Origin: Candidatus Moraniibacteriota bacterium
GTDB lineage: Bacteria; Patescibacteriota; Minisyncoccia; Moranbacterales; UBA1568
NCBI GenBank assembly: GCA_052034935.1
Contig: JBPOIB010000008.1
Coordinates: forward strand, 2,511-66,510
Length of the DNA: 64,000 nucleotides
Direction: 5' to 3'
Position numbers and translations under genes: made by a program. Under the pieces are notes generated by a model. The model searched no databases. It saw only the letters and a list, made by a program, of their open reading frames with translations, and was not told the DNA's origin. The first letter of the stretch is position 1; the number at the start of each line of letters is the position of its first letter. Shown here piece after piece: positions 5,681 to 42,297 of the stretch.

Positions 5681-7144
5681 ATGTCGAGGTGGGTGACGAG
5701 CAGTACGATCGGGCTTTTTGCCGGCATGGGACTGGCTGCTTGGACCGGGGAGCGGGCCGTCATGCTTCTCTTGCTCGCTGCGGTCGGCATCATCATCGTG
5801 CGGAGCCTCTTTCCTGACCGGCGGAAAACTTTTTTCAGCTTCATCGGCCTCCTCGCTCTTTCCAGCGGGATATTTTTTTATCAGCAGGCTTTCGATCGCT
5901 GGCAAAGACTGCCTGAAACAATCGGCTTTTCCGGTGCGGTTGAAATCGTCGAACGAGGCGAAGTGAAGGTCTTCTATCGGCCGGTGACGCTTCGTCCTCT
6001 GGATGAGGACTGGTATGGCGGCGATATCCTCTACCGGGCCCCGATCGATATGGCTGCTTTGCCGGGAGAAGAAGTCGCTTTCGAGTGTATGCTCTCACGG
6101 CCGAAGAATTTCGAGCCTGGTTTCGACTACCGAAGCCTGCTGGCAAGCCGCGGCGTCGGGTACGCGTGCGACCGGGCCGGCACAGCGGAACTTTTGCCGA
6201 GTACCGGCTTCAGTCTTCGGAAATTATTCGCGACCATCCAATCCGGTTTCCGCAGGGCTATCGCTGATATCGTACCGGAGCCGGAGGCCGGACTCCTCTC
6301 GGGGCTACTTGTCGGCGGAAGCGATACGCTTGCTCCCGAGACGAAAGCAGCGTTCGCTCAAGCCGGACTCTCGCACATCGTCGCGGTGTCAGGATACAAC
6401 ATGAGCATCGTCGCCGAAGGCCTGGTCGTCTTCTCACTCATTTTCGGCGCCTGGCGCAAATGGGCGGTGGCCGTTGCTATCATCGGACTCGCTTTCTTCC
6501 TCCTTGTCATCGACGGTTCGGCCGCGTCGCTTCGTGCCGCACTCATGGCCTGGCTCGCATTCGGGGCATATTTTTTCGGCCGGCCGGCGGCTTCGTGGAA
6601 TGGACTCATGATTGCTGGTGCGGGTATGCTCTTCTTTAATCCGCTCCTCATCCGCTACGATGTCGGATTCCAGCTATCATTTCTCGCGACGCTGGCGCTT
6701 CTCATCTTCTCCCGCTCTTTCGAAACGTTCGCGTTCTTCCGTCAGTGGTACGGCAAGGTCGCGGCACTTTTTCTCACGACGATCGTTATTGAACTCTTCA
6801 CGTTACCCATCGTCGTCTCGACATTCGGCACGTTCTCAGTCGTAGCACCGTTCGCGAATGCACTCGTTCTCCCGCTCGTTCCGATCGCGATGTTTATCGG
6901 CATCGGGGCTGTCGTTCTCTCGGGACTTGTCCCAGCACTTGGCATCTTCATCACTCCGCTCGTCTGGCTGCCGCTCACCGCGATCATCCGGCTAGCGGAA
7001 GGACTCGCCCGCATTCCAGGCGCGAGTCTCGAGGGTCTCGACATGCCCGCTTCTTTTGCGCTACTTTGGTATGCCGGACTTGCTGCTACGGTTCTCCTGC
7101 TCGAATATTTCCGCAAGCGCTATGTATTGGGGATGGATCACTAA
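5681..7144 (+). CDS. comEC: ComEC/Rec2 DNA internalisation channel, N-terminal part (DUF4131 + competence domain)
   Basis: Polytopic membrane protein with the motif PEAGLLSGLLVGGSDTLAPETKAAFAQAGLSHIVAVSGYNMSIV. Confidence 0.8.
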   Translation: MSRWVTSSTIGLFAGMGLAAWTGERAVMLLLLAAVGIIIVRSLFPDRRKTFFSFIGLLALSSGIFFYQQAFDRWQRLPETIGFSGAVEIVERGEVKVFYRPVTLRPLDEDWYGGDILYRAPIDMAALPGEEVAFECMLSRPKNFEPGFDYRSLLASRGVGYACDRAGTAELLPSTGFSLRKLFATIQSGFRRAIADIVPEPEAGLLSGLLVGGSDTLAPETKAAFAQAGLSHIVAVSGYNMSIVAEGLVVFSLIFGAWRKWAVAVAIIGLAFFLLVIDGSAASLRAALMAWLAFGAYFFGRPAASWNGLMIAGAGMLFFNPLLIRYDVGFQLSFLATLALLIFSRSFETFAFFRQWYGKVAALFLTTIVIELFTLPIVVSTFGTFSVVAPFANALVLPLVPIAMFIGIGAVVLSGLVPALGIFITPLVWLPLTAIIRLAEGLARIPGASLEGLDMPASFALLWYAGLAATVLLLEYFRKRYVLGMDH

Positions 7145-7976
7145 AACTGTTTTTATACTCTTCCTTCTCGGGTTGGTCGCTGTCTTCGGACTGTGGATTC
7201 TGCTTATCCGTCAGAATTCTGACGAGACCAAAATTGTTTTCCTTTCAGTCGGGCAGGGGGATGCGACCCTTATTTCGCAGGGGATGAACCAGATTGTCAT
7301 CGATGGCGGCCGCGATGGTCAACTCCTCCTCTCCCGGCTCGGCCGGCATATCCCGTTCTACGATCGGACCATCGAAACGCTCATCCCGACCCATCCTGAT
7401 GCCGATCATGTCGGCGGCCTCTCCTCGCTCCTCGAGCGCTACCGGGTGAAGACCGTGCTCGATACGGGTGCACGGACAGACACGAAGTCGGCGTTTCTTT
7501 TCTATCGCGATCTGGAGCGCGAGGAGTCCCGGACTTTTCCAGCGGTGCGCGGCACCAATCTTGCACTCCCGAGAGGCGGCGCACTTGATATCATTTTTCC
7601 TTTCACACTGATTCCGGTGGATACTCCGGAAACAAATGAGGGAAGCGTCGTTAGTCGCTTCTCTTTCGGAGAAACAAGTTTCCTTCTCACGGGGGATTTG
7701 CCAGACGAGGAACGATTCATCCCGGACCTCGGACCGGCGACGGTCCTCAAGGTTGGACACCATGGATCGCAGTATTCGACGAGCGACGCGTTGCTCGAGC
7801 TCGTCAAACCGAAAGAGGCGGTTATCTCGGTGGGGAACAATAGTTATGGCCATCCGCACCCGTCCGTTCTCGAACGGCTCTTGGCACATGGCGTGAGCAT
7901 TTTTCGGACGGACATGGGTGGCGATATTATGTACCGGTGCTTGACTGAGACGAATCGCTGCGACCGTCAGGAATAA
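7122..7976 (+). CDS. comEC: ComEC C-terminal metallo-beta-lactamase domain (separate ORF, different frame; overlaps the previous ORF by 23 nt)
   Basis: TM helix, then KIVFLSVGQGDATLI...THPDADHVGG...KVGHHGS MBL motifs. Confidence 0.75.
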   Translation: MYWGWITKTVFILFLLGLVAVFGLWILLIRQNSDETKIVFLSVGQGDATLISQGMNQIVIDGGRDGQLLLSRLGRHIPFYDRTIETLIPTHPDADHVGGLSSLLERYRVKTVLDTGARTDTKSAFLFYRDLEREESRTFPAVRGTNLALPRGGALDIIFPFTLIPVDTPETNEGSVVSRFSFGETSFLLTGDLPDEERFIPDLGPATVLKVGHHGSQYSTSDALLELVKPKEAVISVGNNSYGHPHPSVLERLLAHGVSIFRTDMGGDIMYRCLTETNRCDRQE

Positions 7977-8004: not shown

Positions 8005-8033
8005 TTGCCAAAGTGGCTAAAGACGAGTATACT
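8005..8033 (+). promoter_or_regulatory. Sigma70-like promoter, TTGCCA-17-TATACT, upstream of ndk
   Basis: Near-consensus hexamers with a 17-nt spacer in an AT-rich gap. Confidence 0.55.
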
Positions 8034-8127
8034 GTCGCGGACAGAGAGAGACTCGTTTCATATTGTTTCCGAAGAGTTTCCATGTCATAATATACTTGTT
8101 GTTAATTGTCTTTATCGTACCGACGTT

Positions 8128-8733
8128 ATGGCCGCCCACCCGAAGAAAGAACTTTCCCTCGTCATCCTGAAGCCGGACGCTATCCAGCGCTCGCTCATGG
8201 GGACTATCATCAGCCGGATCGAGAATACCGGGCTCAAATTCGTCGCGATGCGGCTCGTTGTCCCGAAGGCTGAACAGTGCTGGGCGCACTACAACAAAGA
8301 CGAAGCTTGGTTCATGAAGAAAGGAACGCGCGTCGTCGAAGACCGCAAGGCGCAGAATCTCCCGATCGAGAAGGAGGCGATGGAGTACGGCAAGGATATC
8401 ATCCAGGCGAACGTCGATTTCTTCACTTCCGGCCCCGTGCTCGCCTTCATCGTCGAGGGCAATCAGTCGGTCGCGATCGTGAAGAAGCTCGTCGGCGGCA
8501 CCGAACCGACGACGTCCGATGTCGGCACCATCCGCGGAGACATGACGGTCGACTCCTACGCGCTTTCCTCGATCGATAATCGTGCGGTCCGCAATCTGGT
8601 ACATTGTTCCGATAGTCCGGAAGAGGCTGAGCGTGAGATTCCGATCTGGTTCGAACCGTCCGATATCCTCAAATACCGCCTCGTCCAGGAACAAATTCTC
8701 TACGATGTGAACCTTGATGGCATCCTCGAGTAA
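8128..8733 (+). CDS. ndk: Nucleoside diphosphate kinase
   Basis: LVILKPDAIQR, GLKFVAMRL and NLVHCSDSPEEAEREI motifs, with an insertion. Confidence 0.9.
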   Translation: MAAHPKKELSLVILKPDAIQRSLMGTIISRIENTGLKFVAMRLVVPKAEQCWAHYNKDEAWFMKKGTRVVEDRKAQNLPIEKEAMEYGKDIIQANVDFFTSGPVLAFIVEGNQSVAIVKKLVGGTEPTTSDVGTIRGDMTVDSYALSSIDNRAVRNLVHCSDSPEEAEREIPIWFEPSDILKYRLVQEQILYDVNLDGILE

Positions 8734-29466: not shown

Positions 29467-31980
29467 ATGGGTGAGCGTGGATTGTTACCTGATGCTAGTT
29501 CCGATTTTGCTAAGGGTTCGCGTGTTGAACGTGGCCGTACCCATGAAAAAACTGAAGCGGCCAAGCGCGCCGGAGTGTCCGGTCAAACCGTGCATCGTCG
29601 AGGTTTTATTCCCGTGGCAGCTGCTGAACAAAAACTGGAAAATGCGGGTGAAAAAGCCCTTAGACCACTGCTGGAGGATATCGAAGAGAAGGTTAATCGA
29701 CTGACGCAGGTCGCAGTTTGGCTTGAAGGCGAGGGTATATCAATGCAAAGCGAATATGAGGGGGAGAAAATGTCCCTTCTTCGTTTCATTGCCAATAGCT
29801 TTAGGGCGGCTAAAGATAACGCCGGGCCGTATCTCGAAGATGCAACTAATACATTGGTTGAGACCACAGACTTTCAGGGAGATAAAGAAAAAATTGAAGA
29901 GATTCAGGATCGGTTTGTCCAACTGCTCGAAATTTTAAAGGACCAAGTCGCTAGTCTTGAGTCTGCCACAGGAGAAGATCATCGTGATGTCCCTGCGGAA
30001 ATCAAAGCGCTCTTGAGGGAATCGGCCCCAGCTGAACCGCCGGAGGAAGCTCGGGATTCAACCGAACCAGCAGACTCCCTGGCCGCTGATCCCGCACCAG
30101 AATCAGGACCGGGTGCGGAGGCCGAAGCGAAGTTTGCCGAGCTCGAGAATAGTGTTCAGAAATGGCAGAGCATACGTGGGCGTATAACTGACCTTGCCAA
30201 AGGAACTGCTTTCGACGATGCGATGCGTAGTCTCCCGGCGCCCGATTTTGCGAAGCACCATAAATCGGAAGAGGCAGCGAAGGTGATCAGGCTCTGGAGA
30301 AGACTCCTTGCCCAAGGGAAAAAACCGGATGAGGAGCTTCAGACGAAGATCGAGGCGCTCGAGCAGAATTTGGCCAAGATGATTCCAGCAGGAGAAACAC
30401 TACTAGCTTCGCTCGAGGCTGCGCAGGGCGGTGGAGGAAAAGAGGGTCAGGAGGCGCCCGTTCGCTTCGCTGATTATGATCGAGATGAATTACTCGAAGA
30501 GTTCGAAGGGCAGAACAATCGCGCCAAAATTATCCGCTTGCAAGCAGCACATAAGTCTTTGCGGTTGATGGTTCAAGAGGTGGTCCACTTGGGCGGTTGG
30601 AAAGAACTGAGTGCAGCGGTAGCGAATCTACCGGGCAAAGAGCTGATTCGTAAGGGCAAGCGAGAGCAAAAAGAAAGTGAGTTGCGTGATCTCTGGCAGG
30701 CAAACCAGGAGAAGGGCGCACTGCCGGAGGATATCGATCTCAAGGCGCTCCTTCTCGAGTATCATGATGTGCTGGTGGCTGCGGAGGCCGTCCGGGAGAA
30801 GCTGCAAGCCAATCCGCCGAAAGAGATTGCCCGTAGCGAGCGAGCTGAGGGGGTAACGGAGAATCCTGGACCCGCGCTTGAGGCGGAGCTTCAGGAAAAA
30901 TGGCGGGCGATGCGGGGAAATCCGGAAGCGAAAGTTGCGGCGGTAGAAACATTGCTCGCGGAATGGAAAGAGGTGAGCGAAACGATTCGGCAGTTTTCTG
31001 ATGAGACTCGGGTGCGAAGCGATATCGTCGGCAGCGGTTTGGAGCCACGCAAGTTCGAGAAAATATTCGCTTCAGCTGAAAATGAAAAGCAAGTCGAAGC
31101 AAGGTTAGAGGTGATTCGGAAAAACATGGAAGCGAATCCTGCCTTAAGCGACGAAGACGCTGGGTTTTTGACCGCTAATTTCCATAACTATCATCAGCTC
31201 ATCGCAGCTGCCAGATCAGTCGTCCGTGAACGAGAACGAGAGACGGCAGTGATGGCGGCTGAAGAGGTAGCCGAGGACAATCCGGAAAATGATCCAACAC
31301 CGAAAGAGAAGTTTCTTCAGGCGAATGAGCTCATCACACGTTGGCGGGAGCTTTGCGATGAATTTGGAGTGATACGACTCCGAAAGGCCATTCGGAAGAA
31401 ATATCCAAGAGAAATGGAATTGCCTGTTGTCCCGGACATTGACGCCTGGCTTGAGAAGCATCGGGATCTGAAAGCGTGGCGGGGGCGCTCGGCGCAGCGG
31501 AATCAGGCTCGCCTGGATGCTCACCTGGTAGATCTTGTCGGCTTAGTTAAGGATGCCGAGCTCGTGGCGGCTGATATCCGTTCGCGAAGGGCCGAGAAAA
31601 TCGCTGCAGACAAAAAAGAAGCTGCGGAACCAGAGACGAGGGGAAATGTCACTGTTCTTGCGACTGGACGAATAATTGAAAGCGATGAACAGATGACGGC
31701 TTGGGAAAAGCTCGATTCGGATAAGGCCAAGGAGTTTAAGCGTCTCGTTTCCATGAATGAGTTCAATGATTTTCAGGGGCGACTGAGGGCCAAGCTCTCT
31801 GAAAAAGGTATAACGAATTCAGTGGACCGTCTGCGGATCGCCCAGGTGGCACTCGAGCAGTTCATGCCCGGGCATATTCGCAAGCTCGCAAAAAAAGGTG
31901 ATTGGAATATCGAGATTACTGATGATGAACTTGAAAAAGTGTTCATGGTAGGTTTGAGAAAAAACCTTCTTGTCTCATAA
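29467..31980 (+). CDS. Large (837 aa) acidic, alpha-helical/coiled-coil hypothetical protein; first gene of the giant-protein/T4CP operon
   Basis: Long ORF in coding-like composition. No TM segment and no recognisable domain. The start codon is uncertain. Confidence 0.6.
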   Translation: MGERGLLPDASSDFAKGSRVERGRTHEKTEAAKRAGVSGQTVHRRGFIPVAAAEQKLENAGEKALRPLLEDIEEKVNRLTQVAVWLEGEGISMQSEYEGEKMSLLRFIANSFRAAKDNAGPYLEDATNTLVETTDFQGDKEKIEEIQDRFVQLLEILKDQVASLESATGEDHRDVPAEIKALLRESAPAEPPEEARDSTEPADSLAADPAPESGPGAEAEAKFAELENSVQKWQSIRGRITDLAKGTAFDDAMRSLPAPDFAKHHKSEEAAKVIRLWRRLLAQGKKPDEELQTKIEALEQNLAKMIPAGETLLASLEAAQGGGGKEGQEAPVRFADYDRDELLEEFEGQNNRAKIIRLQAAHKSLRLMVQEVVHLGGWKELSAAVANLPGKELIRKGKREQKESELRDLWQANQEKGALPEDIDLKALLLEYHDVLVAAEAVREKLQANPPKEIARSERAEGVTENPGPALEAELQEKWRAMRGNPEAKVAAVETLLAEWKEVSETIRQFSDETRVRSDIVGSGLEPRKFEKIFASAENEKQVEARLEVIRKNMEANPALSDEDAGFLTANFHNYHQLIAAARSVVRERERETAVMAAEEVAEDNPENDPTPKEKFLQANELITRWRELCDEFGVIRLRKAIRKKYPREMELPVVPDIDAWLEKHRDLKAWRGRSAQRNQARLDAHLVDLVGLVKDAELVAADIRSRRAEKIAADKKEAAEPETRGNVTVLATGRIIESDEQMTAWEKLDSDKAKEFKRLVSMNEFNDFQGRLRAKLSEKGITNSVDRLRIAQVALEQFMPGHIRKLAKKGDWNIEITDDELEKVFMVGLRKNLLVS

Positions 31981-31995
31981 TGAAAGATATTCCGA

Positions 31996-34900
31996 ATGGA
32001 AAACGAAGCTATGCCCGATAAAGATGGAGTCGTGCCGCCGGAGGCTGAGTCTCCGAAGCTACTCGATAAAGCGACAATTGAGGCCATAGGAGCGGAAATC
32101 GCTCTGGAGATTTCCGCTGCAAAAGAACCGGAAAAGGCAGCGAAGCCTGAAAGCGGGTTTTCGGCGGAAGCACTTGAACGCCAGCGCCTTGTTTTTGACA
32201 CGCTCGAGAGCCAGGCGGGGGCTTGGCGGGAACGGATTTCAGCTATTGCAAGTAGAAAAGACCTGGATGCTGTCACGCGGTCGGCGGCTAGTAATGGGAA
32301 GTACACGAGGGTTCCCGGTTTTGTCGTGGGAAATGCCTTGATAAGGCTGCTTCGCGATAACGCGATTACGGACAGTGCCGAGATTGCGGTTATCAAAGAA
32401 CGGGCGTATGAGCTGCAGTCGGAGCTGGATACTCCTTATCTCGCAAAACAGGCAGAGTTCTATCCGACCTCACCGGCAGCCAAAGTTGCGTCGACGGCAG
32501 AAGCTGATCCTCAAGAGGGCTGGATATCGAGGACCAGAGAATTCTCTATTCCGCTCGCAAAAGATTTTCCGTCTGATGGGGTTCGATATGAAACCTTCGA
32601 TGGCAGGAGTTATCTGATCGTCAAGAGAGGGAGCCGGTATCATATCGATGGCCCGGGAATCGAGGGTGGTAGCGCTATCTCGCTGAAAGAAATACATGAG
32701 CGTGCCGAAGCGGAAGGCTGGCGACGGTCAAAGAAGGAGAGTGCAAGTGCGGCTCGGTCTCAAGGGGTTCAAGCCTCTCAGCTTCCTGATCCGGTACCCG
32801 TGCCAGAAACTGGGGCTGGTAATAAGACTGAAACATTGGGTGATATTACCGAACGTCTTAGCTTTCTCCGAAAGGGAGAGGGTCTACGTTATACGGGTCG
32901 AAATAATCAGCGATATGTCATTACCCGAGTTTCTGACCAGGAAGTATACCGTGTCGAGAGTCTTGATGAAGGAGATGATGGCGTGACGAGGCTGCATCAC
33001 ATCAAAGAGTTAGCCGGCTATATATTTGAAAATAATTGGCGATTCCGTGGGAAAAATAGAGTGGAAAGCGGTTCTGGTATGTCTCCAAAGGAGTTGCCAG
33101 TATCAGATGACCGCGGAGAAGTGCCGTTTAAAATTGAGAAGCGGCTCACCAGTCTCAAGCCTGACCGGGAGCTCGTCTATGAGGATGAATCAGGCGCTGC
33201 TTTTTCAGTTTCGAATCCATATGGAAAAGATGTTTTTAGTCTCCGCCATCCAGACGACACGCTGACCATGCATTACATTCGGGATTTGGTTAATGACATT
33301 CGTGAAAAAAAGTGGAAATTCAAGCGAGCAAGGAACCTCGCGGCGAGATCCGGAGAAGTTGCTGTTCAGGGTGTAGAGAGTTCAACCCATATCCTGGGGA
33401 CTGAAGCTCTCAATCAGTCGGCTCAACCAGCTGAAGCTGGTGAATCAGGAAAGGTACGAGAAATGATGACTGCTCTTGCTGAGGGCACAGTTATTAGTTT
33501 CATTAGTCGTTCTGGGGAACCAGTCACCGTCGAAAGGCGCAGTAACCAATATCAGATCACAAGTGCGGATGGCAACTCCTCTGGTTTTACCTATGATCTC
33601 GAACATATCACCAATATTGCAGTAGAGGAGGGATGGAAAGACATGCGTGGTGCGGCTGCCGAAAGCGTGGAGTCGGATTTTCTCAAGGATGGTGAGACGG
33701 GAGAATATACCATGGACAATTCGCCGATGGGATCAGTCCGTCGCTTTAAACGCGTGGGAAATTTCTATCATCAAATCCGTCCGGAGGATGGAAGTATCGG
33801 TAATCCGTATTCCGAGGCTCAAATTCAGCAGCTTGCCAAAGAGGTGGGGCTAAAGCGAGTGGTACCGGAAACTCCGGAGTCCATGGCTGAGGCAGCGAGA
33901 AAAGCGGAGGCACTTGCGGCGCTTGACACCGAGGTGGTGAAATTCCGGACTGAAGCCGACGCTGAACGGTCAGCCTATATCGCCAAGAAAGAAGATCAGA
34001 CGGCCGCCAAGAAAAGGCTCAGTAGAATTTTTCGCGATATCGGATTCGGAGAGAATCTCGAAGAAGAAGTCTTGGATTATAAGCAGTACTACGAAAACGC
34101 CCTTTCGCGCTGGAAGAATGCTGAACTTGAGCGGTTGCGCCAACAAGCACTCGGACGGGAAGAGCTTCATGGGGCGATGGCGGTGCTCGTCCGCGAGTTC
34201 GAATTCGAAGAATCGGAACGCCTCTATGAAGGGGAGCGAAGGGCCCGGTTGGATCGTGTCTCGAAGTCCGTTTTTGAGCGAGCCGATGAGTTATGGAGGG
34301 AATCTAAGGACGGCATCAGCAAAGAAGACGGATCGATGCGAGTAGAAGTCGCCTGGTCTCGGTTGAAATATGTCATGGGTGCACTCGGTATCGCGAGTCA
34401 GGCTGGGCTCGAGAAGGCGGTTAAGGGAGTTGATACTCTCGGCGAGCGTTACAACCAGCTTGCTCGAGGAAAATATGGGAAGCTTATCCTCGGGGCGACC
34501 ATCTTCGGTGCGGGGGCTGTCGTGGCTGGGACAGGTGGCACTGCACTGGCGGGGGTGCTCGCCGCCAAGCGAGTGGCCGCTGGCGCCGGTTTCGCGGTCA
34601 CGGCGAGAGGCGTGATGGATCGGTATGCCGATAAAAGTCGTGAGAAGGAAAAGGCGAATATCATGAACGAGGACCGGGTTAAGAAAGTGATGCGTGATAT
34701 TATCATCCCCACGCTCGATGGAAGGCTCGAGGGTAAGGGTGGAATGTTGAATCTGGAAGCTCTGAGCGAGTATCTCGATAAGGAGGGTATCAAGAAAGTC
34801 CAGAGTAAAGCCCGCCGTCGGAGGATAGGCGAGGTTTTGCGTAAAGGCGGATCGTATGTGGCGGGCGCAGCTATCGGCGGTCTCATACCGAGGGAGTGGT

Positions 34901-36129
34901 TTGATGGAGTGAGTTTCGGGAGCGCCGCACATGCAGCGACTGCTGGTGAGATTGCTCAGCCGGTAGCGGAAGCCGCCTCGGCTCCGTTGCCTCTTGCTTC
35001 CGCGCCGGTGGCTACTCCCGATAGTCCGCTTGCGGGTGGGCCTGGCTCAGGTCCGTCGATTGCTGAGTCTTCGGCGGCAGCTGAATTGTTGAAAGATACC
35101 CAAGCAATACCTGCCCCAGCTGCGTTAGAGGCGCCAGAATCTTTGAAGGATACGCATGTTATCCCAGCCCCGACTGAAGTATCGGAAGGGGGTACGGAAG
35201 GATTGCTCAAGTCATACGAGGTGAAGCCGGGGGATTCGATTTGGAAGATTGCGACAAAATCGGTCGAGGGAGTGCCAGATATGGACAAGCGTTCGAGTGG
35301 GCGTTTCGCGAAACTGCTCGCTCTGAGGCTCGAAGAGAAATTGACCGTAATCGATCCGAAACTCGCCGAAGCGGCTGGATTCACACCGGATGTCGATGGC
35401 CGTTTCACCCCGGACCACATCCTCGCTGGGGCAAAGCTCGAACTTGGCAAACTTCTTTCTGTCGAGGAGATGGCGAAGCTTGTCGAAGAGGCGAAGAGTG
35501 ATAGTCCGATTGCAATCCCGACTGAGTCGGCTCCGGTCGCTGCCGAGGTGGTGCCCTTAGCTGCTCAGTCCTCGACCGAGGCAGAACAGGTCGTAATTGA
35601 AGAAGCACGCGTCGCCGCTCAGGTGCCGTCGGTGAGTGTTGAAGAGCGGTCGGATATACTGAGCGTGTTCGAGCAGCATGCATCTCAAGAGCTCATCAAG
35701 CCGGATGGGAACGTGATGAAATACATCGAGACCTTGCCACGTGAAGAACAGGAGAAGCTTTTCCGTAATTTCAAAAAACTTTCGGTCGAGCTCTTTCAGA
35801 CGAATGAAGTGATGGGAAGCGAGACCTATGAAATGCGCTATGATCCGGCTGTTCATCCAGAACTTGCCAAGACAAACATGGCGACCATCCTGACCGATCA
35901 TAAGCTGCTCGGAAAGAATCCGTTCGTCTCGTATGATCGTTTCCGGAATCCGCTGCATGGTTCGCAGATGGAGGAAATAGCAAAATTTTCGAAAGCAGTA
36001 GCGAAGGTGTTCGGCCCGACGGCCGCAGCGCCGAAGGCGGTTGAATCTGTCCAGGAGTATGTTCTCCGAATGGCGGCGATTGCCGGCAATCAGCAGGTAA
36101 AAATTCCGGGTTTCCGTATGGTAAACTAA
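31996..36129 (+). CDS. Giant (1377 aa) hypothetical protein with five internal repeats of about 65 aa, a Gly-zipper hydrophobic segment and a LysM-like C-terminal region
   Basis: Repeats lie at about aa 180-625, each ending ...EGW(R/K). Hydrophobic segment GKLILGATIFGAGAVVAGTGGTALAGVLAAKRVAAGAGFAV at about aa 828-871. LysM-like YEVKPGDSIWKIA at about aa 1074. Confidence 0.65.
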   Translation: MENEAMPDKDGVVPPEAESPKLLDKATIEAIGAEIALEISAAKEPEKAAKPESGFSAEALERQRLVFDTLESQAGAWRERISAIASRKDLDAVTRSAASNGKYTRVPGFVVGNALIRLLRDNAITDSAEIAVIKERAYELQSELDTPYLAKQAEFYPTSPAAKVASTAEADPQEGWISRTREFSIPLAKDFPSDGVRYETFDGRSYLIVKRGSRYHIDGPGIEGGSAISLKEIHERAEAEGWRRSKKESASAARSQGVQASQLPDPVPVPETGAGNKTETLGDITERLSFLRKGEGLRYTGRNNQRYVITRVSDQEVYRVESLDEGDDGVTRLHHIKELAGYIFENNWRFRGKNRVESGSGMSPKELPVSDDRGEVPFKIEKRLTSLKPDRELVYEDESGAAFSVSNPYGKDVFSLRHPDDTLTMHYIRDLVNDIREKKWKFKRARNLAARSGEVAVQGVESSTHILGTEALNQSAQPAEAGESGKVREMMTALAEGTVISFISRSGEPVTVERRSNQYQITSADGNSSGFTYDLEHITNIAVEEGWKDMRGAAAESVESDFLKDGETGEYTMDNSPMGSVRRFKRVGNFYHQIRPEDGSIGNPYSEAQIQQLAKEVGLKRVVPETPESMAEAARKAEALAALDTEVVKFRTEADAERSAYIAKKEDQTAAKKRLSRIFRDIGFGENLEEEVLDYKQYYENALSRWKNAELERLRQQALGREELHGAMAVLVREFEFEESERLYEGERRARLDRVSKSVFERADELWRESKDGISKEDGSMRVEVAWSRLKYVMGALGIASQAGLEKAVKGVDTLGERYNQLARGKYGKLILGATIFGAGAVVAGTGGTALAGVLAAKRVAAGAGFAVTARGVMDRYADKSREKEKANIMNEDRVKKVMRDIIIPTLDGRLEGKGGMLNLEALSEYLDKEGIKKVQSKARRRRIGEVLRKGGSYVAGAAIGGLIPREWFDGVSFGSAAHAATAGEIAQPVAEAASAPLPLASAPVATPDSPLAGGPGSGPSIAESSAAAELLKDTQAIPAPAALEAPESLKDTHVIPAPTEVSEGGTEGLLKSYEVKPGDSIWKIATKSVEGVPDMDKRSSGRFAKLLALRLEEKLTVIDPKLAEAAGFTPDVDGRFTPDHILAGAKLELGKLLSVEEMAKLVEEAKSDSPIAIPTESAPVAAEVVPLAAQSSTEAEQVVIEEARVAAQVPSVSVEERSDILSVFEQHASQELIKPDGNVMKYIETLPREEQEKLFRNFKKLSVELFQTNEVMGSETYEMRYDPAVHPELAKTNMATILTDHKLLGKNPFVSYDRFRNPLHGSQMEEIAKFSKAVAKVFGPTAAAPKAVESVQEYVLRMAAIAGNQQVKIPGFRMVN

Positions 36130-36144
36130 GTTCAGAATAAAAAT

Positions 36145-36450
36145 ATGGACATTGACTATTCGAAAATTGAACAAGAACTGATTGAAGAGCTCGCGCTTTC
36201 GGGGCTACCAAAGCCAAAACAGGAAGAGCTCCTCGGTCGGATGCTCGAAGCACTCCTGAAGCGGATTTTCATGGAGACGATGGAACGGCTTGGTGAAGAT
36301 GGGATGAAGGAGTATGAAGCTTTAATTGAAGCCAAACCGACCGAAGAAGCTGTCGGAAAATTTCTCGAAGATCGGATTCCAGAATATACGGTATTTATTG
36401 AGGGTATCGTGGAACAGTTCAAGAAAGACATAAAAGCGGTGGCCGCCTAA
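36145..36450 (+). CDS. Small acidic helical hypothetical protein (101 aa)
   Basis: Tightly packed ORF inside the operon. No recognisable domain. Confidence 0.5.
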   Translation: MDIDYSKIEQELIEELALSGLPKPKQEELLGRMLEALLKRIFMETMERLGEDGMKEYEALIEAKPTEEAVGKFLEDRIPEYTVFIEGIVEQFKKDIKAVAA

Positions 36451-36454
36451 CCCT

Positions 36455-36871
36455 ATGTCAATGTGGGAATTTTTTTCACGGAAAAAAGAGGCGGCGGCCG
36501 TGGTGGCTTCGCCCGCGAATATAGCTGAAACGAAGGTTTCAGAAGGTAAGCCTGATTTTGAGAGAGTTTCCGAACAAACAGTCGAGAAGGTAAACGAGAA
36601 GTATGCCGCAATACTTTCTCAGAGTGCGATTTCCCAGTCGGCACCAGTAGCCGCTCAGGTAGCTACGGATGCTGACCTGTTGAGCCATGCCGTAGATGCG
36701 GAAACCCGGGTTAATCAGCTCGTCGAGCTCGCTCAGGTAAAGGGAGTCGCTCATGCGGTCGAAGTCGCCCGAAAAATGAATGATCTCTACGTCCTTGATA
36801 CGATGCATGATGAGCTTGCGGATAAGCTCTATGATGCCCTCAGGGCAAAGGGGCTCATTCTCGGGGAATAG
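36455..36871 (+). CDS. Small hypothetical protein (138 aa)
   Basis: Tightly packed ORF, 4 nt after the previous stop. No recognisable domain. Confidence 0.5.
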   Translation: MSMWEFFSRKKEAAAVVASPANIAETKVSEGKPDFERVSEQTVEKVNEKYAAILSQSAISQSAPVAAQVATDADLLSHAVDAETRVNQLVELAQVKGVAHAVEVARKMNDLYVLDTMHDELADKLYDALRAKGLILGE

Positions 36872-36894
36872 GAGAAAAACAAGACAAAAAATAA

Positions 36895-39393
36895 ATGTTT
36901 TCGGAGTTCGATCTCAATGTCGTATTGCTTCCGCTCGCGTATCTCTCGGGCGGATTAGCTTTTCTTTCTGGTCTTTTTCTTGTAGTCAAAGCGTTCCTCG
37001 TCGTCCGTTTCGAAGTTGCTCAATCGCTCAATCTCGATCTTGAAATTGTTCAGGTAAGCAAAAAGAAAGTATCAGAGGGGGCAGTCCACACAGCTGAAGA
37101 ATGGCGGGAGGAGATTCGGGCAATGGAGCAGCTCCTCGCCTCACTCTCCTCGCTGAAGCGTCATCTACCTTTTTGGAAGCGTCTTTTCTTCGAGGCACCG
37201 CATATCGTCTTCGAAATCGCGAACCCTTCATCGAAGGAGGAAATATTCTTTTATCTCTCCGTTCCCAAGCATTACCGTGAGAATGTTGAAAAGCAGATCC
37301 ATAGTTTCTTTCCTCATGCCTCGATCGAAAAGGTTCCTGACTATACCATTTTCTCTCCTACTGGCGAGACGGCCGTCGCACTTCTCGAGCTCTCAGCGAG
37401 TCATGCCTTGCCCTTGAAAACATATAAGACACTCTCAGTCGATCCATTGAACGAGATTTCTAATGCTCTCTCGAAGCTTGAAACGGTTGCCGAGGGAGCG
37501 GCTATTCAAATTATTCTGGCGCCGGCCCCCAATGGTTGGCGGCGAGGAAGTCGTCAGATTGCTCAAAGAATGCAGGAGGGGAAGCGGTTAAAAGACGCGC
37601 ATCCTGAAACATTTACTTCCATGGTTGGGAAGTCGGCGCTGGAGGGAATGAACCGAGTCGTCCTTCAGCAGGATATGAAGGCGGGTAAGCTCGAAGAGAA
37701 AAAGCCGGTTGTCTTGACGCCCGAGGAACAGGAGCTCGTCAAAACAATCGACGCGAAAGCGAGCCAGTCAGCCTTTTCCGTAAATATCCGCCTTCTCGCC
37801 TCGGCAAGCACAAAGGCTCGCGCTGAAAGTATCCTCAGTCATCTGGAGAATGCTTTTTCCCAGTTCGAGAATCCGGAAGTGAACAGCTTCCGTGTTAAAA
37901 AGCGTATCTCATCGAAAAAAGCAGCCTATCATTATATTTTTCGAAACTTCGATCCCGATTCGGCCATGGTCCTCACTTCGGATGAGGTCGCGAGTTTCTT
38001 TCATTTCCCGATCTCGACTACTGAGACACCAAAAATTAAGTGGTTGAAAGCCGGTGCTGCCCCGCCGCCGATTAATATCCCGAAAGAGGGATTGTTGCTT
38101 GGCTATAACGATTACCGCAACACGAAGACAGAAATTCGTATCACGGATAATGACCGCCGCCGCCATATGTATGTGGTCGGACAGACTGGTGTCGGAAAAT
38201 CGAATTATCTCCAAGAAATGGCAAAGAAAGATGCGCGTTCTGGTAAAGGGTTCTGCTTCATCGATCCACATGGTGATGCAATCGAAGATATCCTCACTTC
38301 GATCCCGAAGGAACGCGCGGAAGACGTCATTGTCTTCGATCCATCCGATACGGCTCGCCCGATTGGAATCAATATGCTCGAATTCGATCCGAATCATCCC
38401 GAGCAGAAAACCTTCGTCATCAATGAGATGATTGGCATTTTCGATCAGTTGTACGATATGAAGGCGACCGGCGGCCCGATGTTTGAGCAATATATGCGCA
38501 ACGCCATGTTGCTTATCATGGAGCATCCAGAAAGCGGGTCGACCTTGATGGAGATCCCGAAAGTGCTCGCTGATGAAGAGTTCCGGCGCTACAAACTCGA
38601 GCATTGCGCCAATCCAATCGTCCGTGATTTCTGGCTGAAAGAGGCGGAGAAAGCTGGTGGCGAAGCGGCACTTGCGAATATGGTCCCATACATCACTTCA
38701 AAGCTGACGACATTTATTTCGAACGATATGATGCGGCCGATTATTGCGCAGCAGAAAAGTACACTCAATTTTCGTGAGCTGATGGATAGTGGAAAAATCG
38801 TCCTCATTAACCTCTCCAAGGGAAAGATTGGCGAGATTAATGCTCGCCTCCTCGGTATGGTCGTCGTCGGAAAGATACTGATGGCGGCCCTTTCCCGGAC
38901 TGATCAACCGGAAGCAGAACGGCGAGATTTTTATCTCTATCTCGACGAATTCCAGAATGTGACAACGACTTCGATTGCGCAGATCCTGTCCGAAGCGCGC
39001 AAGTACAAGCTCGTGCTCATCCTCGCTCACCAGTTCATCGCCCAACTCAAAGAGGAGATTTCGAAAGCGGTCTTTGGCAATGTCGGCTCGCTCATCTCCT
39101 TCCGGGTTGGTCCGGAGGATGCTGAATTTCTCGAGAAGCAGTTCTCTCCGGTCTTTAGCGCTCACGATATCGTGAATGTCGACAACTACCAAGCGTTTGC
39201 TCGCCTCCTCATGAATAATGAGCTGACCAAACCATTTAATATGAAAACCTATCCGCCGACTTCAGGCGATCAAGAAGTGGCCAATGCACTCAAGGAACTC
39301 TCGCGCCTACGCTACGGCCGCGACGCAAGGATCGTGAACCAGGAAATCATATCCCGCATGCATCTTGCTGAGGGGACTCGGGCGAGAACTTAA
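36895..39393 (+). CDS. VirD4/TraG/TrwB-like type IV coupling protein (T4CP) ATPase with N-terminal TM helices
   Basis: Two N-terminal TM helices. Walker A VVGQTGVGKS, T4CP-type FIDPHGD, and a TraG-D_C-like YLYLDEFQN...ILAHQFIAQL...NVGSLISFRVGPED. Confidence 0.7.
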   Translation: MFSEFDLNVVLLPLAYLSGGLAFLSGLFLVVKAFLVVRFEVAQSLNLDLEIVQVSKKKVSEGAVHTAEEWREEIRAMEQLLASLSSLKRHLPFWKRLFFEAPHIVFEIANPSSKEEIFFYLSVPKHYRENVEKQIHSFFPHASIEKVPDYTIFSPTGETAVALLELSASHALPLKTYKTLSVDPLNEISNALSKLETVAEGAAIQIILAPAPNGWRRGSRQIAQRMQEGKRLKDAHPETFTSMVGKSALEGMNRVVLQQDMKAGKLEEKKPVVLTPEEQELVKTIDAKASQSAFSVNIRLLASASTKARAESILSHLENAFSQFENPEVNSFRVKKRISSKKAAYHYIFRNFDPDSAMVLTSDEVASFFHFPISTTETPKIKWLKAGAAPPPINIPKEGLLLGYNDYRNTKTEIRITDNDRRRHMYVVGQTGVGKSNYLQEMAKKDARSGKGFCFIDPHGDAIEDILTSIPKERAEDVIVFDPSDTARPIGINMLEFDPNHPEQKTFVINEMIGIFDQLYDMKATGGPMFEQYMRNAMLLIMEHPESGSTLMEIPKVLADEEFRRYKLEHCANPIVRDFWLKEAEKAGGEAALANMVPYITSKLTTFISNDMMRPIIAQQKSTLNFRELMDSGKIVLINLSKGKIGEINARLLGMVVVGKILMAALSRTDQPEAERRDFYLYLDEFQNVTTTSIAQILSEARKYKLVLILAHQFIAQLKEEISKAVFGNVGSLISFRVGPEDAEFLEKQFSPVFSAHDIVNVDNYQAFARLLMNNELTKPFNMKTYPPTSGDQEVANALKELSRLRYGRDARIVNQEIISRMHLAEGTRART

Positions 39394-39413
39394 CGAGCGT
39401 TGAGAAAATCCCT

Positions 39414-39851
39414 ATGAAGTATACGGAATATATAGATACACTTCCCGTCGGTACGTGTCCCTTTTGCGCTTCTGATGACCGACGGTTGATTGAGAACGAG
39501 ACGGCCTATGTCACATATGCCCTTGCTCCGTATCATAAACATCACTTACTCATCATCCCAAAAGACCACAAGAAATCATTTCTTCACCTCAGCCCAGAAG
39601 AACATATCGATATCCAGGATCTCGCACAAAAAAGCTCGCGTCTGCTCCGGTATCTCGGATACGAGAATTTTACCATGATGGTTCGCGAGGGGGCGGAAGG
39701 AGCGAGGAGTGTCGAACATCTCCATTACCACTTCATCCCGAATGTCCGTCTCGGCGATCTCGATCATGCGAATGGCGCCCGGAACGTGATGTCTGATGAA
39801 GAGGTTCAATCCCTCATAGTCGAGCTTAGGAGCGTGATTGATCAGCTCTAG
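39414..39851 (+). CDS. HIT-family (histidine triad) hydrolase
   Basis: HLHYHFIP histidine triad and an N-terminal CPFC motif. Confidence 0.75.
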   Translation: MKYTEYIDTLPVGTCPFCASDDRRLIENETAYVTYALAPYHKHHLLIIPKDHKKSFLHLSPEEHIDIQDLAQKSSRLLRYLGYENFTMMVREGAEGARSVEHLHYHFIPNVRLGDLDHANGARNVMSDEEVQSLIVELRSVIDQL

Positions 39852-39915: not shown

Positions 39916-42297
39916 TTACTGTATCCGCCAGACGGCGACAGCACCGTGGCTGGATGTGAGAAGTTCAGTCCCATCGTTCGATACGGTGATAGCCTCAGTC
40001 CCGCTGAATGATTCATGGAAGTATTGGTTGATAAGCACTCCTGAGAGAGACCAGCGAAGGATGCGTCGGCTGCCTCGGTCGAGAGCGAAGACATCACCAT
40101 TCTTCGGGTTGAAAGAAAGAGTGTCCGTCATGACCGGTGCGGCGCTTCCTGAAAAAACAACACCGGTGTTTTTTCCGCGCGTGAAAATGATAGGGCGACC
40201 GTCATTTCCTACCAGGGCGATGTTCTCATAGACACTCATCGCCGATTTTTCTTTCAAATTGAGAGTCTCTTTGGACCAGGTAATCGCGTCACCGAAGCCG
40301 CCTTCAGCTCGAGGGAAGCGATAAATTTTTCCGGCTGTCTGGTCGAGAACATAGAGGTAGGTGAGGTAAGAGCCGAGAGCGTCGATGTTTGTTCCGGAGG
40401 CGAGGGGGAGAGTATTCAATTCAAATTTTTTGTTCGTGACGCTATAGAGATAGAGCGCTCCGGATTCGCTGAGGAGGAATAGCGCATCGAGGTCATCCAT
40501 GCCAGTAGCGAGACGGATTGTTTCCGGAGCATTCGTTGATTCTTGAGTCTTCAGGTTCGTGATGCGCTTTCCAGTGATGAGAAAGGGAACATCATTAATG
40601 TTCGTAAGCGCCACGGTCGCTGCGTCACCAATCGGCGAGAGTGTTCGGTCACCACTGAGGCGGATTGACAATGGTTCATCGGCCGGAGGAAAAACCTTCG
40701 CTTCGGCCGTTGCGGGGGTATTTTCGACGGCAGGGGCAGCTGTCTGCTCGGACACCCCAGTCTCGTCAGTTGAAAAGAGAAATAGACTGAGGGCGAGCAT
40801 GATAACGCACCCGGTGATAAGAAAAAGCCAGCCTTTCGTTGACAAGTTCTGGATGAGGGGAGGAATCGCGCTGAAAAGTCGACTGAGGAGATTAGCTATT
40901 TTTCTAACCATGCGATGCCAGGCCTCCTTTCCGGTTCCGAGGGCGCCCATACTGATTGTACGGACGCGGAGATGGGTTGCCCGTGCTTTTTCACCGAGAG
41001 ATACATAGCGAGAGCGGACAGAATCGGACGGCTCGGATATCGTGATAGCCGGGGCTGGGGTATTTGTCGGAGGGTCTATTTCAGTGACAGGAATCGATCG
41101 GTTTTCTGATTCCCTTACTTGGCGAGCTTCTCGGAAAGCCTGCCATTTCAACTGAATTGATCGCTTGCTGAGGCGCGTACGCCGCTCGGCCGCGCGCTTC
41201 AGAACACTGAGCTGCGAGTATAATTCATCAACCAGGAAGCCGGACTCTTTGCTAATCCGGCGGAAAGTCTTTTTAGTGCTGGCCTGGGCCGCTCGCGCGT
41301 GCAGATCGAAGTGATGTCGGAAGACATCCCAGGACTCTTTCCAGTGTGTATCTGGCGTACGGAATGATTCGTCGTTCGAGGCCTGAACGTAAATGTGGCC
41401 AGTTTTCGCATCAGTGTATTCTGTTTTCGGAACTTCCCCTTGAGAAGAAGGTTCCTTTTTTGAGGGGCTTGATTCATGTTTGGACTGGAGCGCTTCAGAG
41501 AACGGCTTTCCGCTCCAAACGTTTTCAAGGCTAATGGGTGGTTTTTTCGATTCTTTTCTCGCCGGTGCAGGTTTGATGACCTCGACCGGGGCGGAACAGA
41601 GGAGAATGGCTGCTGCTGCGACCGGCAACTCATTGATAAGGGCGGTACGGAGAAACTGCTCGAAGCCGGCTGGTCCGAGGCGACTCAGACTTCGCGCGAG
41701 TTCTCCAGGTGAGAAAAGTGACCATATTGATGGGGAAAAGGCAATCACGAGGTCGCCGTCGAAAAGTTCGCCGCTGGAGACTTCAGTGAAGGTTTTGAGT
41801 GGATGCGGCTCGCTGCCGGTATCGGCAAGCCCTTGACTGATCGATTGGAATGAGTCATTTCTGGCGAGATAGAGTTCGCCTTCTCCGGTAGCGGAGAAAT
41901 GAAGAAGGTTCTCATTGACCGCGCCAATCGCTCCATGGAGATGGCCGAGCCAGGAGACATTGCCATGTTTGACTATTTCGGCTAAGGCGACATTGATCTT
42001 GTGAAGAGCGGCATCAAAACTATCAGTCGGACTCCGTCGCGGATTGGCAAAGTATTCTTTCTTGGCGACGGAAGTGAGAAAATTGACGATGTAGGCAGCG
42101 TCTTGATCATGGATCTCTACCTCGAAAAAACCGAAAAGCGTCCCGAGGCTCTTGCCCGCGACGTTATCGCTCGCGTAATGGAAAGCTATGATGTAGGGCT
42201 CTTGCGCACGCCCAGCCCCCACGACGATTTCTTTGTATGACTTTTCGAGTACGGCCAGGGACTGCTTTTTAGCCCGGTCATCGATGCGTTGACGCAT
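39916..42297 (-). CDS. Membrane protein with N-terminal PP2C-like (SpoIIE/PPM-type) domain, one TM helix and a large extracytoplasmic C-terminal domain
   Basis: GEGELYLARNDSFQSIS and DGDLVIAFSPSIW resemble PPM motifs. TM segment WLFLITGCVIMLALSLFLF. The functional call is tentative. Confidence 0.5.
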   Translation of the reverse strand: MRQRIDDRAKKQSLAVLEKSYKEIVVGAGRAQEPYIIAFHYASDNVAGKSLGTLFGFFEVEIHDQDAAYIVNFLTSVAKKEYFANPRRSPTDSFDAALHKINVALAEIVKHGNVSWLGHLHGAIGAVNENLLHFSATGEGELYLARNDSFQSISQGLADTGSEPHPLKTFTEVSSGELFDGDLVIAFSPSIWSLFSPGELARSLSRLGPAGFEQFLRTALINELPVAAAAILLCSAPVEVIKPAPARKESKKPPISLENVWSGKPFSEALQSKHESSPSKKEPSSQGEVPKTEYTDAKTGHIYVQASNDESFRTPDTHWKESWDVFRHHFDLHARAAQASTKKTFRRISKESGFLVDELYSQLSVLKRAAERRTRLSKRSIQLKWQAFREARQVRESENRSIPVTEIDPPTNTPAPAITISEPSDSVRSRYVSLGEKARATHLRVRTISMGALGTGKEAWHRMVRKIANLLSRLFSAIPPLIQNLSTKGWLFLITGCVIMLALSLFLFSTDETGVSEQTAAPAVENTPATAEAKVFPPADEPLSIRLSGDRTLSPIGDAATVALTNINDVPFLITGKRITNLKTQESTNAPETIRLATGMDDLDALFLLSESGALYLYSVTNKKFELNTLPLASGTNIDALGSYLTYLYVLDQTAGKIYRFPRAEGGFGDAITWSKETLNLKEKSAMSVYENIALVGNDGRPIIFTRGKNTGVVFSGSAAPVMTDTLSFNPKNGDVFALDRGSRRILRWSLSGVLINQYFHESFSGTEAITVSNDGTELLTSSHGAVAVWRIQ

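Follow-up and report, generated by a model that had tools for sequence, protein, structure and literature searches.

A putative orphan coupling-protein-like ATPase with a VirB4-type N-terminal domain and a small partner protein at a chromosomal locus of Moranbacteria

Introduction

Two ATPase families of the type IV secretion systems (T4SSs), namely VirB4 proteins and the VirD4-type coupling proteins (T4CPs), are the closest described relatives of the protein analysed here. Patescibacteria comprise a large share of bacterial diversity; they are epibionts whose genomes are tiny, and to grow on their hosts they require a T4SS. The N-terminal domain of VirB4 binds the tails of VirB3 and VirB8 in the R388 machine, and VirB4 extracts pilins (PMC12624023). 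We report the analysis of a locus of Candidatus Moraniibacteriota, where a T4CP-like ATPase of 832 amino acids (aa) is encoded with five other + strand open reading frames (ORFs) on 64,000 nucleotides (nt) of contig JBPOIB010000008.1 (assembly GCA_052034935.1); this whole 64-kb stretch is called the window, and all coordinates are positions in it. Near-identical homologues of the ATPase carry the names Candidatus Moranbacteria or Moraniibacteriota, and Moranbacteria rank as a phylum in the Parcubacteria group of the Patescibacteria. The initial annotation had interpreted the six genes as one operon, possibly for a minimal, coupling-protein-driven export or surface-display system for giant proteins.

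Orphan T4CP-like genes of Patescibacteria are already published. The survey by Quinonero-Coronel et al. 2025 (PMC12102498) counted 5,713 VirD4-type T4CP homologues as CONJScan t4cp profile matches; they are spread over 2,918 of the 3,035 Patescibacteria genomes, and only 148 of them lie near virB4; the present ATPase family (DUF8128) is probably among these 't4cp1/t4cp2' matches, judging from Pfam matches and NCBI names. VirB4 was reported in 2,417 of the 3,035 genomes, and exaptation of the T4CP was suggested. Almost every Patescibacteria genome keeps one or two coupling-protein-like ATPases far from T4SS genes. In the supplement, Table S3 gives VirB3-TrsD-VirB4(-VirB6) clusters for the Moranbacteria genomes GCA_000989885.1 and GCA_000990175.1, with the T4CP matches hundreds of genes off, and the closely related complete genome GCA_016699425 is absent from it (PMC12102498). 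Wang et al. 2023 described a Southlakia T4SS cluster without a recognisable coupling protein.

Results

The core gene of the locus (36895..39393, +) encodes the 832-aa ATPase, a protein of the VirB4/VirD4 superfamily. The predicted structures show one tethering helix, then an N-terminal domain of VirB4 type, and a P-loop domain that is catalytically intact and carries an all-alpha insertion. The N-terminal hydrophobic helix (residues 7-45; 36913..37029, +), a likely membrane tether, is one hydrophobic stretch and one continuous helix in the model, and not the two transmembrane (TM) helices counted previously. It is followed by an alpha/beta domain like the VirB4 N-terminal domain (DUF8128, residues 46-395; 37030..38079, +) and by the RecA-like NTPase domain (38080..39264, +; Walker A at 38179-38202, Walker B at 38941-38958), which carries the inserted all-alpha subdomain (residues ~504-632; 38404-38790, +). 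All of the motifs quoted in the initial annotation were found, namely Walker A GQTGVGKS (residues 429-436), DPHGD (457-461), LDEFQN (683-688), AHQ (711-713) and FRVGPED (736-742), and the catalytic residues and motifs are invariant in the family.

Four Pfam models match the ATPase above their gathering cut-offs: TrwB_AAD_bind (2.7e-8; 33.5 bits vs 20.5), DUF87/HerA (2.6e-7), TraG-D_C (1.5e-6; 28.6 bits vs 22) and T4SS-DNA_transf (1.3e-4; 21.4 bits vs 20.1). The profile evidence for a T4CP-type protein is confirmed by three of these, and the combination of multi-TM N-domain, alpha/beta motor, gamma domain and FtsK_SpoIIIE signature that marks FtsK/SpoIIIE was not found in the ATPase. NCBIfam gave sub-threshold matches only (TraD, VirD4-like, CedD, HerA and VirB4 models). 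PF26449 (DUF8128) is precomputed for the database protein P0001, reported as 100% identical, and for all close homologues; it was not listed by the local Pfam scan, whose copy is probably older than the model. A look-up of the exact sequence of the window's ATPase gave no record, and relatives served for the comparisons. When a profile of 38 family members was compared with PDB sequences, TrwB was the best match (6e-8), followed by DotL (6e-6) and HerA (1e-3), and by sequence the P-loop domain is closest to the VirD4-type coupling proteins TrwB and DotL.

The ATPase combines features of two families. It has the nucleotide-binding domain (NBD) of the FtsK/HerA superfamily with Walker A, Walker B and the T4CP signature, and the all-alpha domain inserted in the NBD, as T4CPs do; the two-helix TM domain directly before the NBD is absent, and a single helix and then a 350-aa VirB4-like domain precede the NBD here. 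Both the N-terminal domain fold and the C-terminal NTPase domain agree with VirB4. The VirB4 sequence signature is absent: TIGR00929 scored 15.8 bits vs a cut-off of 643.1, and neither CagE_TrbE_VirB nor P-loop_TraG was detected at E<=0.1. The gene context of VirB4 (VirB3, VirB6, VirB8, TrsD and pilins alongside) is not found either, the neighbours being a DUF5663 protein, a 138-aa protein and a large hairpin protein. The alpha/beta, VirB4-like N-domain is without the HAS-barrel of HerA, PADLOC revealed no defence partner, and no DNA-binding domain was detected in the ATPase. The earlier identification as a VirD4-type coupling protein stands as far as the T4CP signatures go, but the protein is not canonical, with its VirB4-type N-domain and with 26 lineages lacking any TM helix.

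A number of ATPase relatives (P0177, P0179, P0194 and similar, 1400-2000 aa) carry ~1000-aa, Pro/Ala-rich and apparently disordered C-terminal tails, in which the motifs LPPIGAPPVD, HQKVIQPLEPI and KGEVYVDxxGNVIVGE are conserved and no Pfam match was obtained. The possibility that these tails are fusions to upstream-type proteins was rejected on account of this composition and the missing Pfam match; by analogy with TraD and DotL, they may be docking tails.

We compared the neighbourhoods of the ATPase in 84 loci, comprising 80 loci from GTDB species genomes of many Patescibacteria lineages, the window, and three earlier non-duplicate loci. Genes of the related loci were called by a simple longest-ORF heuristic and analysed with home-built hidden Markov models (HMMs), small ORFs and ATPase N-termini being kept apart for the family of the 138-aa protein (g4; 36455..36871, +). 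Eight loci have too little upstream sequence, leaving 76 assessable for the small partner. A g4-type protein is encoded directly upstream of the ATPase, with a gap of -3 to 184 nt, in 29 of these loci; the g4-type domain is fused to the ATPase N-terminus in another 26 (ORFs of 908-968 aa); an unrelated small protein, g4b, is in the g4 position in 12, and no small partner was detected in 9. Independently called database proteins of 888-1120 aa hold the g4 domain at residues ~4-135, confirming the fusion.

The fusion and the TM helix of the ATPase are mutually exclusive: the helix is found in none of the 26 ATPases with fused g4, in 28/29 with separate g4 and in all 12 with g4b. Since g4 is adjacent in 29 loci and fused in 26, with the fusion excluding the TM helix, it is the ATPase's own detachable N-terminal module. 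The g4 protein is acidic and helical and has no Pfam, NCBIfam or PDB match. We confirmed that the two small proteins of the locus are acidic (pI 4.53 and 4.98). Their size and charge had been noted as typical of secretion chaperones or adaptors; the 138-aa protein is indeed a genuine partner of the ATPase, but as a detachable ATPase module, not a generic secretion chaperone.

The g4b protein has 150-216 aa, a disordered N-terminal half and the motif WLKxIPGVNKFFLEQEAKIKTDKI, and is always beside a TM-bearing ATPase (loci L021, L023, L026, L028, L029, L031, L032, L033, L060, L070, L074 and L083). It was considered as a remote g4 homologue and rejected (hhalign 0.2%).

The ATPase family comprises 5,913 clusters at 50% identity (E<=1e-30) and is near-universal, slowly evolving and single-copy per locus. 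According to the sequence comparisons, the conserved unit is the ATPase with its small partner, in nearly all Patescibacteria. In fused-form lineages (L050, L052, L071 and similar) the ATPase gene was observed after secY, adk, a gene of the amino-acid-kinase family and map, and before ndk and a beta-CASP RNase gene. This secY-adk-map context is where the ribosomal-protein operon region ends. Large partners are not encoded near it, so giant-protein export cannot be the general function of the ATPase. For many loci (L005-L008, L022, L023, L026 and others) the TPA_asm titles of metagenome-assembled genomes ('uncultured Bdellovibrionales', 'Gammaproteobacteria', 'Saccharibacteria') stand on clearly Patescibacteria gene content, as do 'Bacillota' and 'Methylomirabilota' titles on short contigs; the labels look unreliable or the contigs mis-binned.

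The other proteins of the locus are less conserved. Identity to three relatives is 90/73/74% for the ATPase, 79/43/44% for the DUF5663 protein, 63/44/53% for g4 and 34/25/22% for the 1377-aa protein (g2; 31996..36129, +), in the last case for the C-terminal part only. The N-terminal half of g2 (31996-33882) carries ~90-aa repeats and is lineage-specific; the C-terminal half (33883-36126), aligned for 11 Moranbacteria, is conserved from residue ~630 on and contains a coiled coil, a hydrophobic segment, a Pro/Ala linker, a LysM-like stretch and a C-terminal domain. By eye there are four or five repeat units ending W-[RK]; a BLAST self-comparison of both large proteins did not recover the visually apparent repeats, so that the repeats noted earlier are visible but not detected computationally. 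The Gly/Ala-rich, hairpin-like hydrophobic segment (34471-34605) is positively charged on both flanks, which suggests a hairpin anchor, and g2 looks like a hairpin-anchored membrane protein and not a secreted cargo. Neither large protein has an N-terminal hydrophobic segment, confirming that signal peptides are lacking. As an argument for surface exposure, the LysM-like region is weak: the stretch (35203-35451) scores 16.2 bits vs a gathering cut-off of 20.9 and covers profile positions 1-15 of 43, and the motif is kept in ~5/11 family members and degenerate in ~6/11.

Relatives of g2 are few in large-database searches, 1 and 5 only (5 in a search of 5.8 billion proteins). The gene is linked to the ATPase in all Moranbacteria loci, and remote homologues are encoded beside the ATPase, downstream of it, in the non-Moranbacteria loci L079 and L080 (hhalign 95.7% and 94.8%), followed in one of them by DUF5663. 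This rearranged linkage supports a real functional link between g2 and the ATPase. Large ORFs adjoining the ATPase in 12 other loci were considered as g2 relatives and rejected, except those of L079 and L080.

The 101-aa protein (36145..36450, +) is an acidic helical protein of Pfam family DUF5663 (2.2e-7). In every Moranbacteria locus, and also in L077, its gene separates those of the large protein and g4; in L014, L024 and L080 it is near the ATPase in another gene order, and it was not detected in most other loci. DUF5663 and g2 are linked to the ATPase mainly in Moranbacteria. The 837-aa protein (g1; 29467..31980, +) is acidic, helical and TM-less, has no family match, and gave no BLAST match at 1e-3 to any related-locus protein, even where the ATPase is 90% identical; its membership in the module is uncertain. 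In relatives the slot upstream of g2 holds a 561-aa protein, two proteins of 543 and 514 aa or smaller ORFs, or is empty, and it takes unrelated acidic helical proteins, the 837-aa protein being the one present here. The 145-aa HIT protein (39414..39851, +; Pfam HIT 3.2e-12) is incidental, because its gene adjoins the ATPase in 2/84 loci only, those of the window and of the relative closest to it. The HIT protein is a chance neighbour, and the large proteins encoded upstream are fast-evolving, clade-specific add-ons. No significant match to PDB sequences was found for the small proteins, the 1377-aa protein or the 793-aa protein encoded downstream.

The six + strand ORFs (837, 1377, 101, 138, 832 and 145 aa) were reproduced from the sequence with spacers of 15, 15, 4, 23 and 20 nt. 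The initial annotation had assumed a single transcript, which is consistent with the short spacing but follows from these gaps only; a sigma-70-like match (TTGAGA, 16-nt spacer, CATAAT, 10/12) lies at 31954-31981 (+), inside the end of the 837-aa gene and just 5' of the 1377-aa gene, and because of this promoter-like site the 837-aa gene may be transcribed apart from the rest. Terminator-like matches at the locus are no more frequent than in shuffled sequence. As an integral unit the six-gene operon is not upheld, with the HIT gene adjacent in so few loci and the 837-aa protein lacking a detectable homologue beside a 90% identical ATPase.

The gene order in Moranbacteria is two divergent PMT genes, the variable slot, the g2-type large protein, DUF5663, g4, the ATPase and a convergent ~800-aa gene. 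The block g2-DUF5663-g4-ATPase and its chromosomal position are retained in all Moranbacteria loci, so the synteny holds for this block but not for the HIT and 837-aa genes. The two genes divergent from the first ORF do encode GT-C glycosyltransferases (PMT_2/PMT), as annotated; the proposal that they glycosylate the large proteins is not borne out, PMT being tied to the locus by clade-level synteny alone, with a linkage that does not exceed the one seen for holB or ftsQ within this block. HIT and the PMT glycosyltransferases are mere neighbours. The convergent neighbour in the window (39916-42297, -) encodes 793 aa with a TM segment near the middle (~485-515). This protein is conserved in 11 Moranbacteria loci, with 51/32/38% identity to three relatives, and nothing in Pfam, NCBIfam, PADLOC or PDB matches it; it may belong to the module as well or may just be syntenic.

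Everything else in this stretch has housekeeping roles: ComEC, ndk, tpiA, fba, gap, murD, murA, mreB, holB, ftsQ, rmuC, a GT4 (MraY-like) glycosyltransferase, prfA, prmC, rpsB, rpoA and six tRNAs, with an even GC content. When the 46 larger ORFs were scanned against Pfam, neither VirB4 nor a relaxase, integrase or pilin turned up, in agreement with the annotated lack of T4SS components, and no VirB3, TrsD or multi-TM VirB6-like or VirB8-like gene is beside the ATPase. ComEC is represented by two overlapping + ORFs (5681-7144 and 7056-7976), one with the Competence and the other with the Lactamase_B domain; either the gene is really split, or a frameshift or an error in sequencing could account for the two ORFs. 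The ndk ORF (8005-8733, +) encodes 242 aa with an N-terminal extension and the NDK domain matched in two stretches; the ndk adjoining the ATPase in L052 is also extended (194 aa). Two long ORFs (1155-2345, -, 396 aa; 1176-2291, +, 371 aa) overlap nearly fully on opposite strands, and the minus-strand one has no Pfam match.

Discussion

We propose that the locus encodes an orphan, exapted T4CP-like ATPase module and not a self-sufficient exporter, with a protein as the client and a distal T4SS as the conduit. We give this composite proposal about an even chance of being correct; our confidence is high for the identity of the ATPase and its partner and much lower for the client and the conduit. 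By analogy with VirB4, TrwB and HerA, the ATPase would form a ring at the inner membrane face, where the VirB4-like N-domain and the 138-aa module would provide a docking platform for membrane-protein tails or cargo, and ATP hydrolysis would power the recruitment, unfolding or extraction of a protein substrate. The putatively hairpin-anchored 1377-aa protein would be the most likely client or anchor in Moranbacteria, and a VirB3-TrsD-VirB4(-VirB6) system elsewhere in such genomes the most likely conduit.

Several observations weigh against this proposal. What the ATPase does in general cannot be defined by the accessory proteins of Moranbacteria, because in many lineages it is found in a ribosomal and nucleotide-kinase gene context without a large partner. 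Since soluble forms without a TM helix exist, the ATPase itself can do without membrane insertion. T4CP-type genes occur in 96% of genomes vs 80% for VirB4, several genomes in the published table having a T4CP and no VirB4 row, which suggests a T4SS-independent role in at least some lineages (PMC12102498). The same source reports a Southlakia T4CP homologue, possibly of the DUF8128 family, as non-essential and the T4SS genes as essential (PMC12102498).

The self-sufficient exporter of the initial annotation, in which a membrane ATPase would drive export or display of large proteins with small acidic chaperones and PMT glycosylation, has some support in the tight co-directional packing of the genes, in large proteins that lack a signal peptide and are hypervariable as exposed proteins often are, in the recurrence of the g2-ATPase linkage in rearranged form, in the lack of T4SS genes in the 64-kb window and in the genomes with T4CP-type genes and no detected VirB4 (PMC12102498). 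We nevertheless regard it as improbable. With a single TM helix at most, and with 26 lineages that lack it, the ATPase cannot form a channel alone, and the dispensability of the helix argues in the same direction; the operon holds no gene for a polytopic channel protein, the 837-aa 'cargo' is unconserved, the HIT protein is incidental, and neither the sub-threshold, unconserved LysM stretch nor the PMT linkage helps. Moreover, other T4SS parts are missing from the window but probably present elsewhere in the genome, as two Moranbacteria genomes have distant VirB3-TrsD-VirB4 clusters in the available part of Table S3 (PMC12102498). What survives of the exporter model is the 138-aa partner and the 1377-aa linkage, and not the six-gene unit or an ATPase with more than one TM helix. 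A bolder variant, which we consider doubtful and only slightly credible, is that the DUF8128 ATPase, the 138-aa protein, DUF5663 and the large protein make up an autonomous, T4SS-independent envelope machine, where a VirB4-like dislocase would extract Gly/Ala-rich, hairpin-anchored hypervariable proteins from the membrane, much as pilins are extracted by VirB4, and display or release them for host contact. If true, it would be a previously unrecognised route of secretion or surface display that either preceded the T4SS or derives from it, and that nearly all bacteria of the candidate phyla radiation share. A different and unlikely, though not negligible, explanation is a housekeeping DNA motor, a membrane-associated or soluble translocase for DNA uptake, chromosome segregation or nucleotide scavenging to which the large proteins would be unrelated. 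The closest solved relatives (TrwB, HerA, DptH and VirB4) are ring ATPases that depend on DNA or bind it. The family evolves slowly, is near-universal and has housekeeping contexts, with secY-adk-map upstream and ndk downstream, and ComEC and ndk are in the window. The coexistence of soluble and membrane-bound forms recalls SftA and SpoIIIE. This reading has to contend with the lack of a detected DNA-binding domain in the ATPase, with an N-domain that is the VirB4 protein-docking domain and not a HAS-barrel or FtsK gamma domain, and with a conserved partner that is small, acidic and helical, unlikely for a DNA-binding partner; the ndk and adk adjacency may just reflect the conserved end of the spc operon.

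That the locus is a module for defence against phages, with an ATPase of HerA/DptH/MADS type as its base, is very improbable: the PADLOC 'mad8' match to the ATPase core (2e-14), the weak HerA matches and the weak match of the HIT protein to ThsC (8.5e-7) speak for it, but the ATPase matches are confined to the generic P-loop core, the other five proteins and the downstream 793-aa protein have no defence-family match in PADLOC, and the HIT protein is not conserved. A near-universal, slowly evolving ATPase that is single-copy per locus and encoded in housekeeping operons is the opposite of what defence islands show. The idea of a decayed integrative and conjugative element, with the remaining genes just outside the window, draws on the T4CP-type Pfam and NCBIfam matches (TraD, VirD4-like, TraG) and is effectively refuted by the synteny and the core-gene context. 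Both flanks are core genes (murD, murA, mreB, holB, ftsQ, rmuC, prfA, rpsB and rpoA) without integrase, relaxase or VirB4, the chromosomal position is the same across Moranbacteria, and the GC content is even across the window, all indicating a chromosomal locus; relaxases are moreover rare in Patescibacteria, 109 in 103 genomes (PMC12102498).

No literature was found on DUF8128, DUF5663, the VirB4-like N-domain of these ATPases or the partner logic. The hybrid of a VirB4-type N-domain with a T4CP-type C-terminal domain, the obligate split or fused partner, the alternation of TM helix and fusion, and the Moranbacteria accessory layer appear to be undescribed. The locus gives the orphan T4CP a concrete anatomy, a docking domain with a motor, a split or fused partner and a helix-or-fusion rule, and in Moranbacteria the co-encoded, fast-diversifying membrane protein is a natural candidate client. 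The vague idea of T4CP exaptation can now be turned into specific questions about partner binding, client extraction and VirB4 dependence, and the hybrid architecture bears on the divergence of VirB4 and VirD4 from a common ancestor.

The ATPase can be placed among known systems as follows. HerA-NurA, DptH, FtsK/SpoIIIE and EccC of the type VII secretion system differ from it in that the ATPase is without HAS-barrel, NurA and the FtsK alpha and gamma domains; a clearly greater distance separates it from FtsK and EccC. The VirB4 ATPases (TrwK of R388 and VirB4 of T. pseudethanolicus) are alike in size (~800 aa) and in the two-domain plan, and an N-terminal membrane helix attached to the N-domain is reminiscent of the VirB3-VirB4 fusions that occur naturally. 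Unlike them, the present ATPase is without the VirB4 sequence signature and is not beside VirB3, TrsD, VirB6, VirB8 or pilins; Patescibacteria already have, elsewhere, a separate and monophyletic VirB4 carrying PF19044 (PMC12102498).

The VirD4-type T4CPs (TrwB, DotL/IcmO, Cag-beta and TraD/TraG) are the best sequence-profile relatives and share the all-alpha insertion in the NTPase domain; the long C-terminal tails in some family members are like those of TraD and DotL, and the small acidic partner proteins recall the DotL adaptors. In contrast to T4CPs, the ATPase has the 350-aa VirB4-like N-domain that they lack, one TM helix or none vs the usual two-helix TM domain, and housekeeping chromosomal contexts unlinked to relaxase or T4SS genes. 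Compared with the orphan T4CP homologues of Patescibacteria, the present analysis adds the VirB4-like N-domain, the split or fused partner, the TM-or-soluble dichotomy and the neighbourhoods, which the accessible part of that report does not describe; the ATPase otherwise agrees with these homologues in phylum, in a position far from virB4, in near-universal occurrence and in the exaptation suggested there (PMC12102498).

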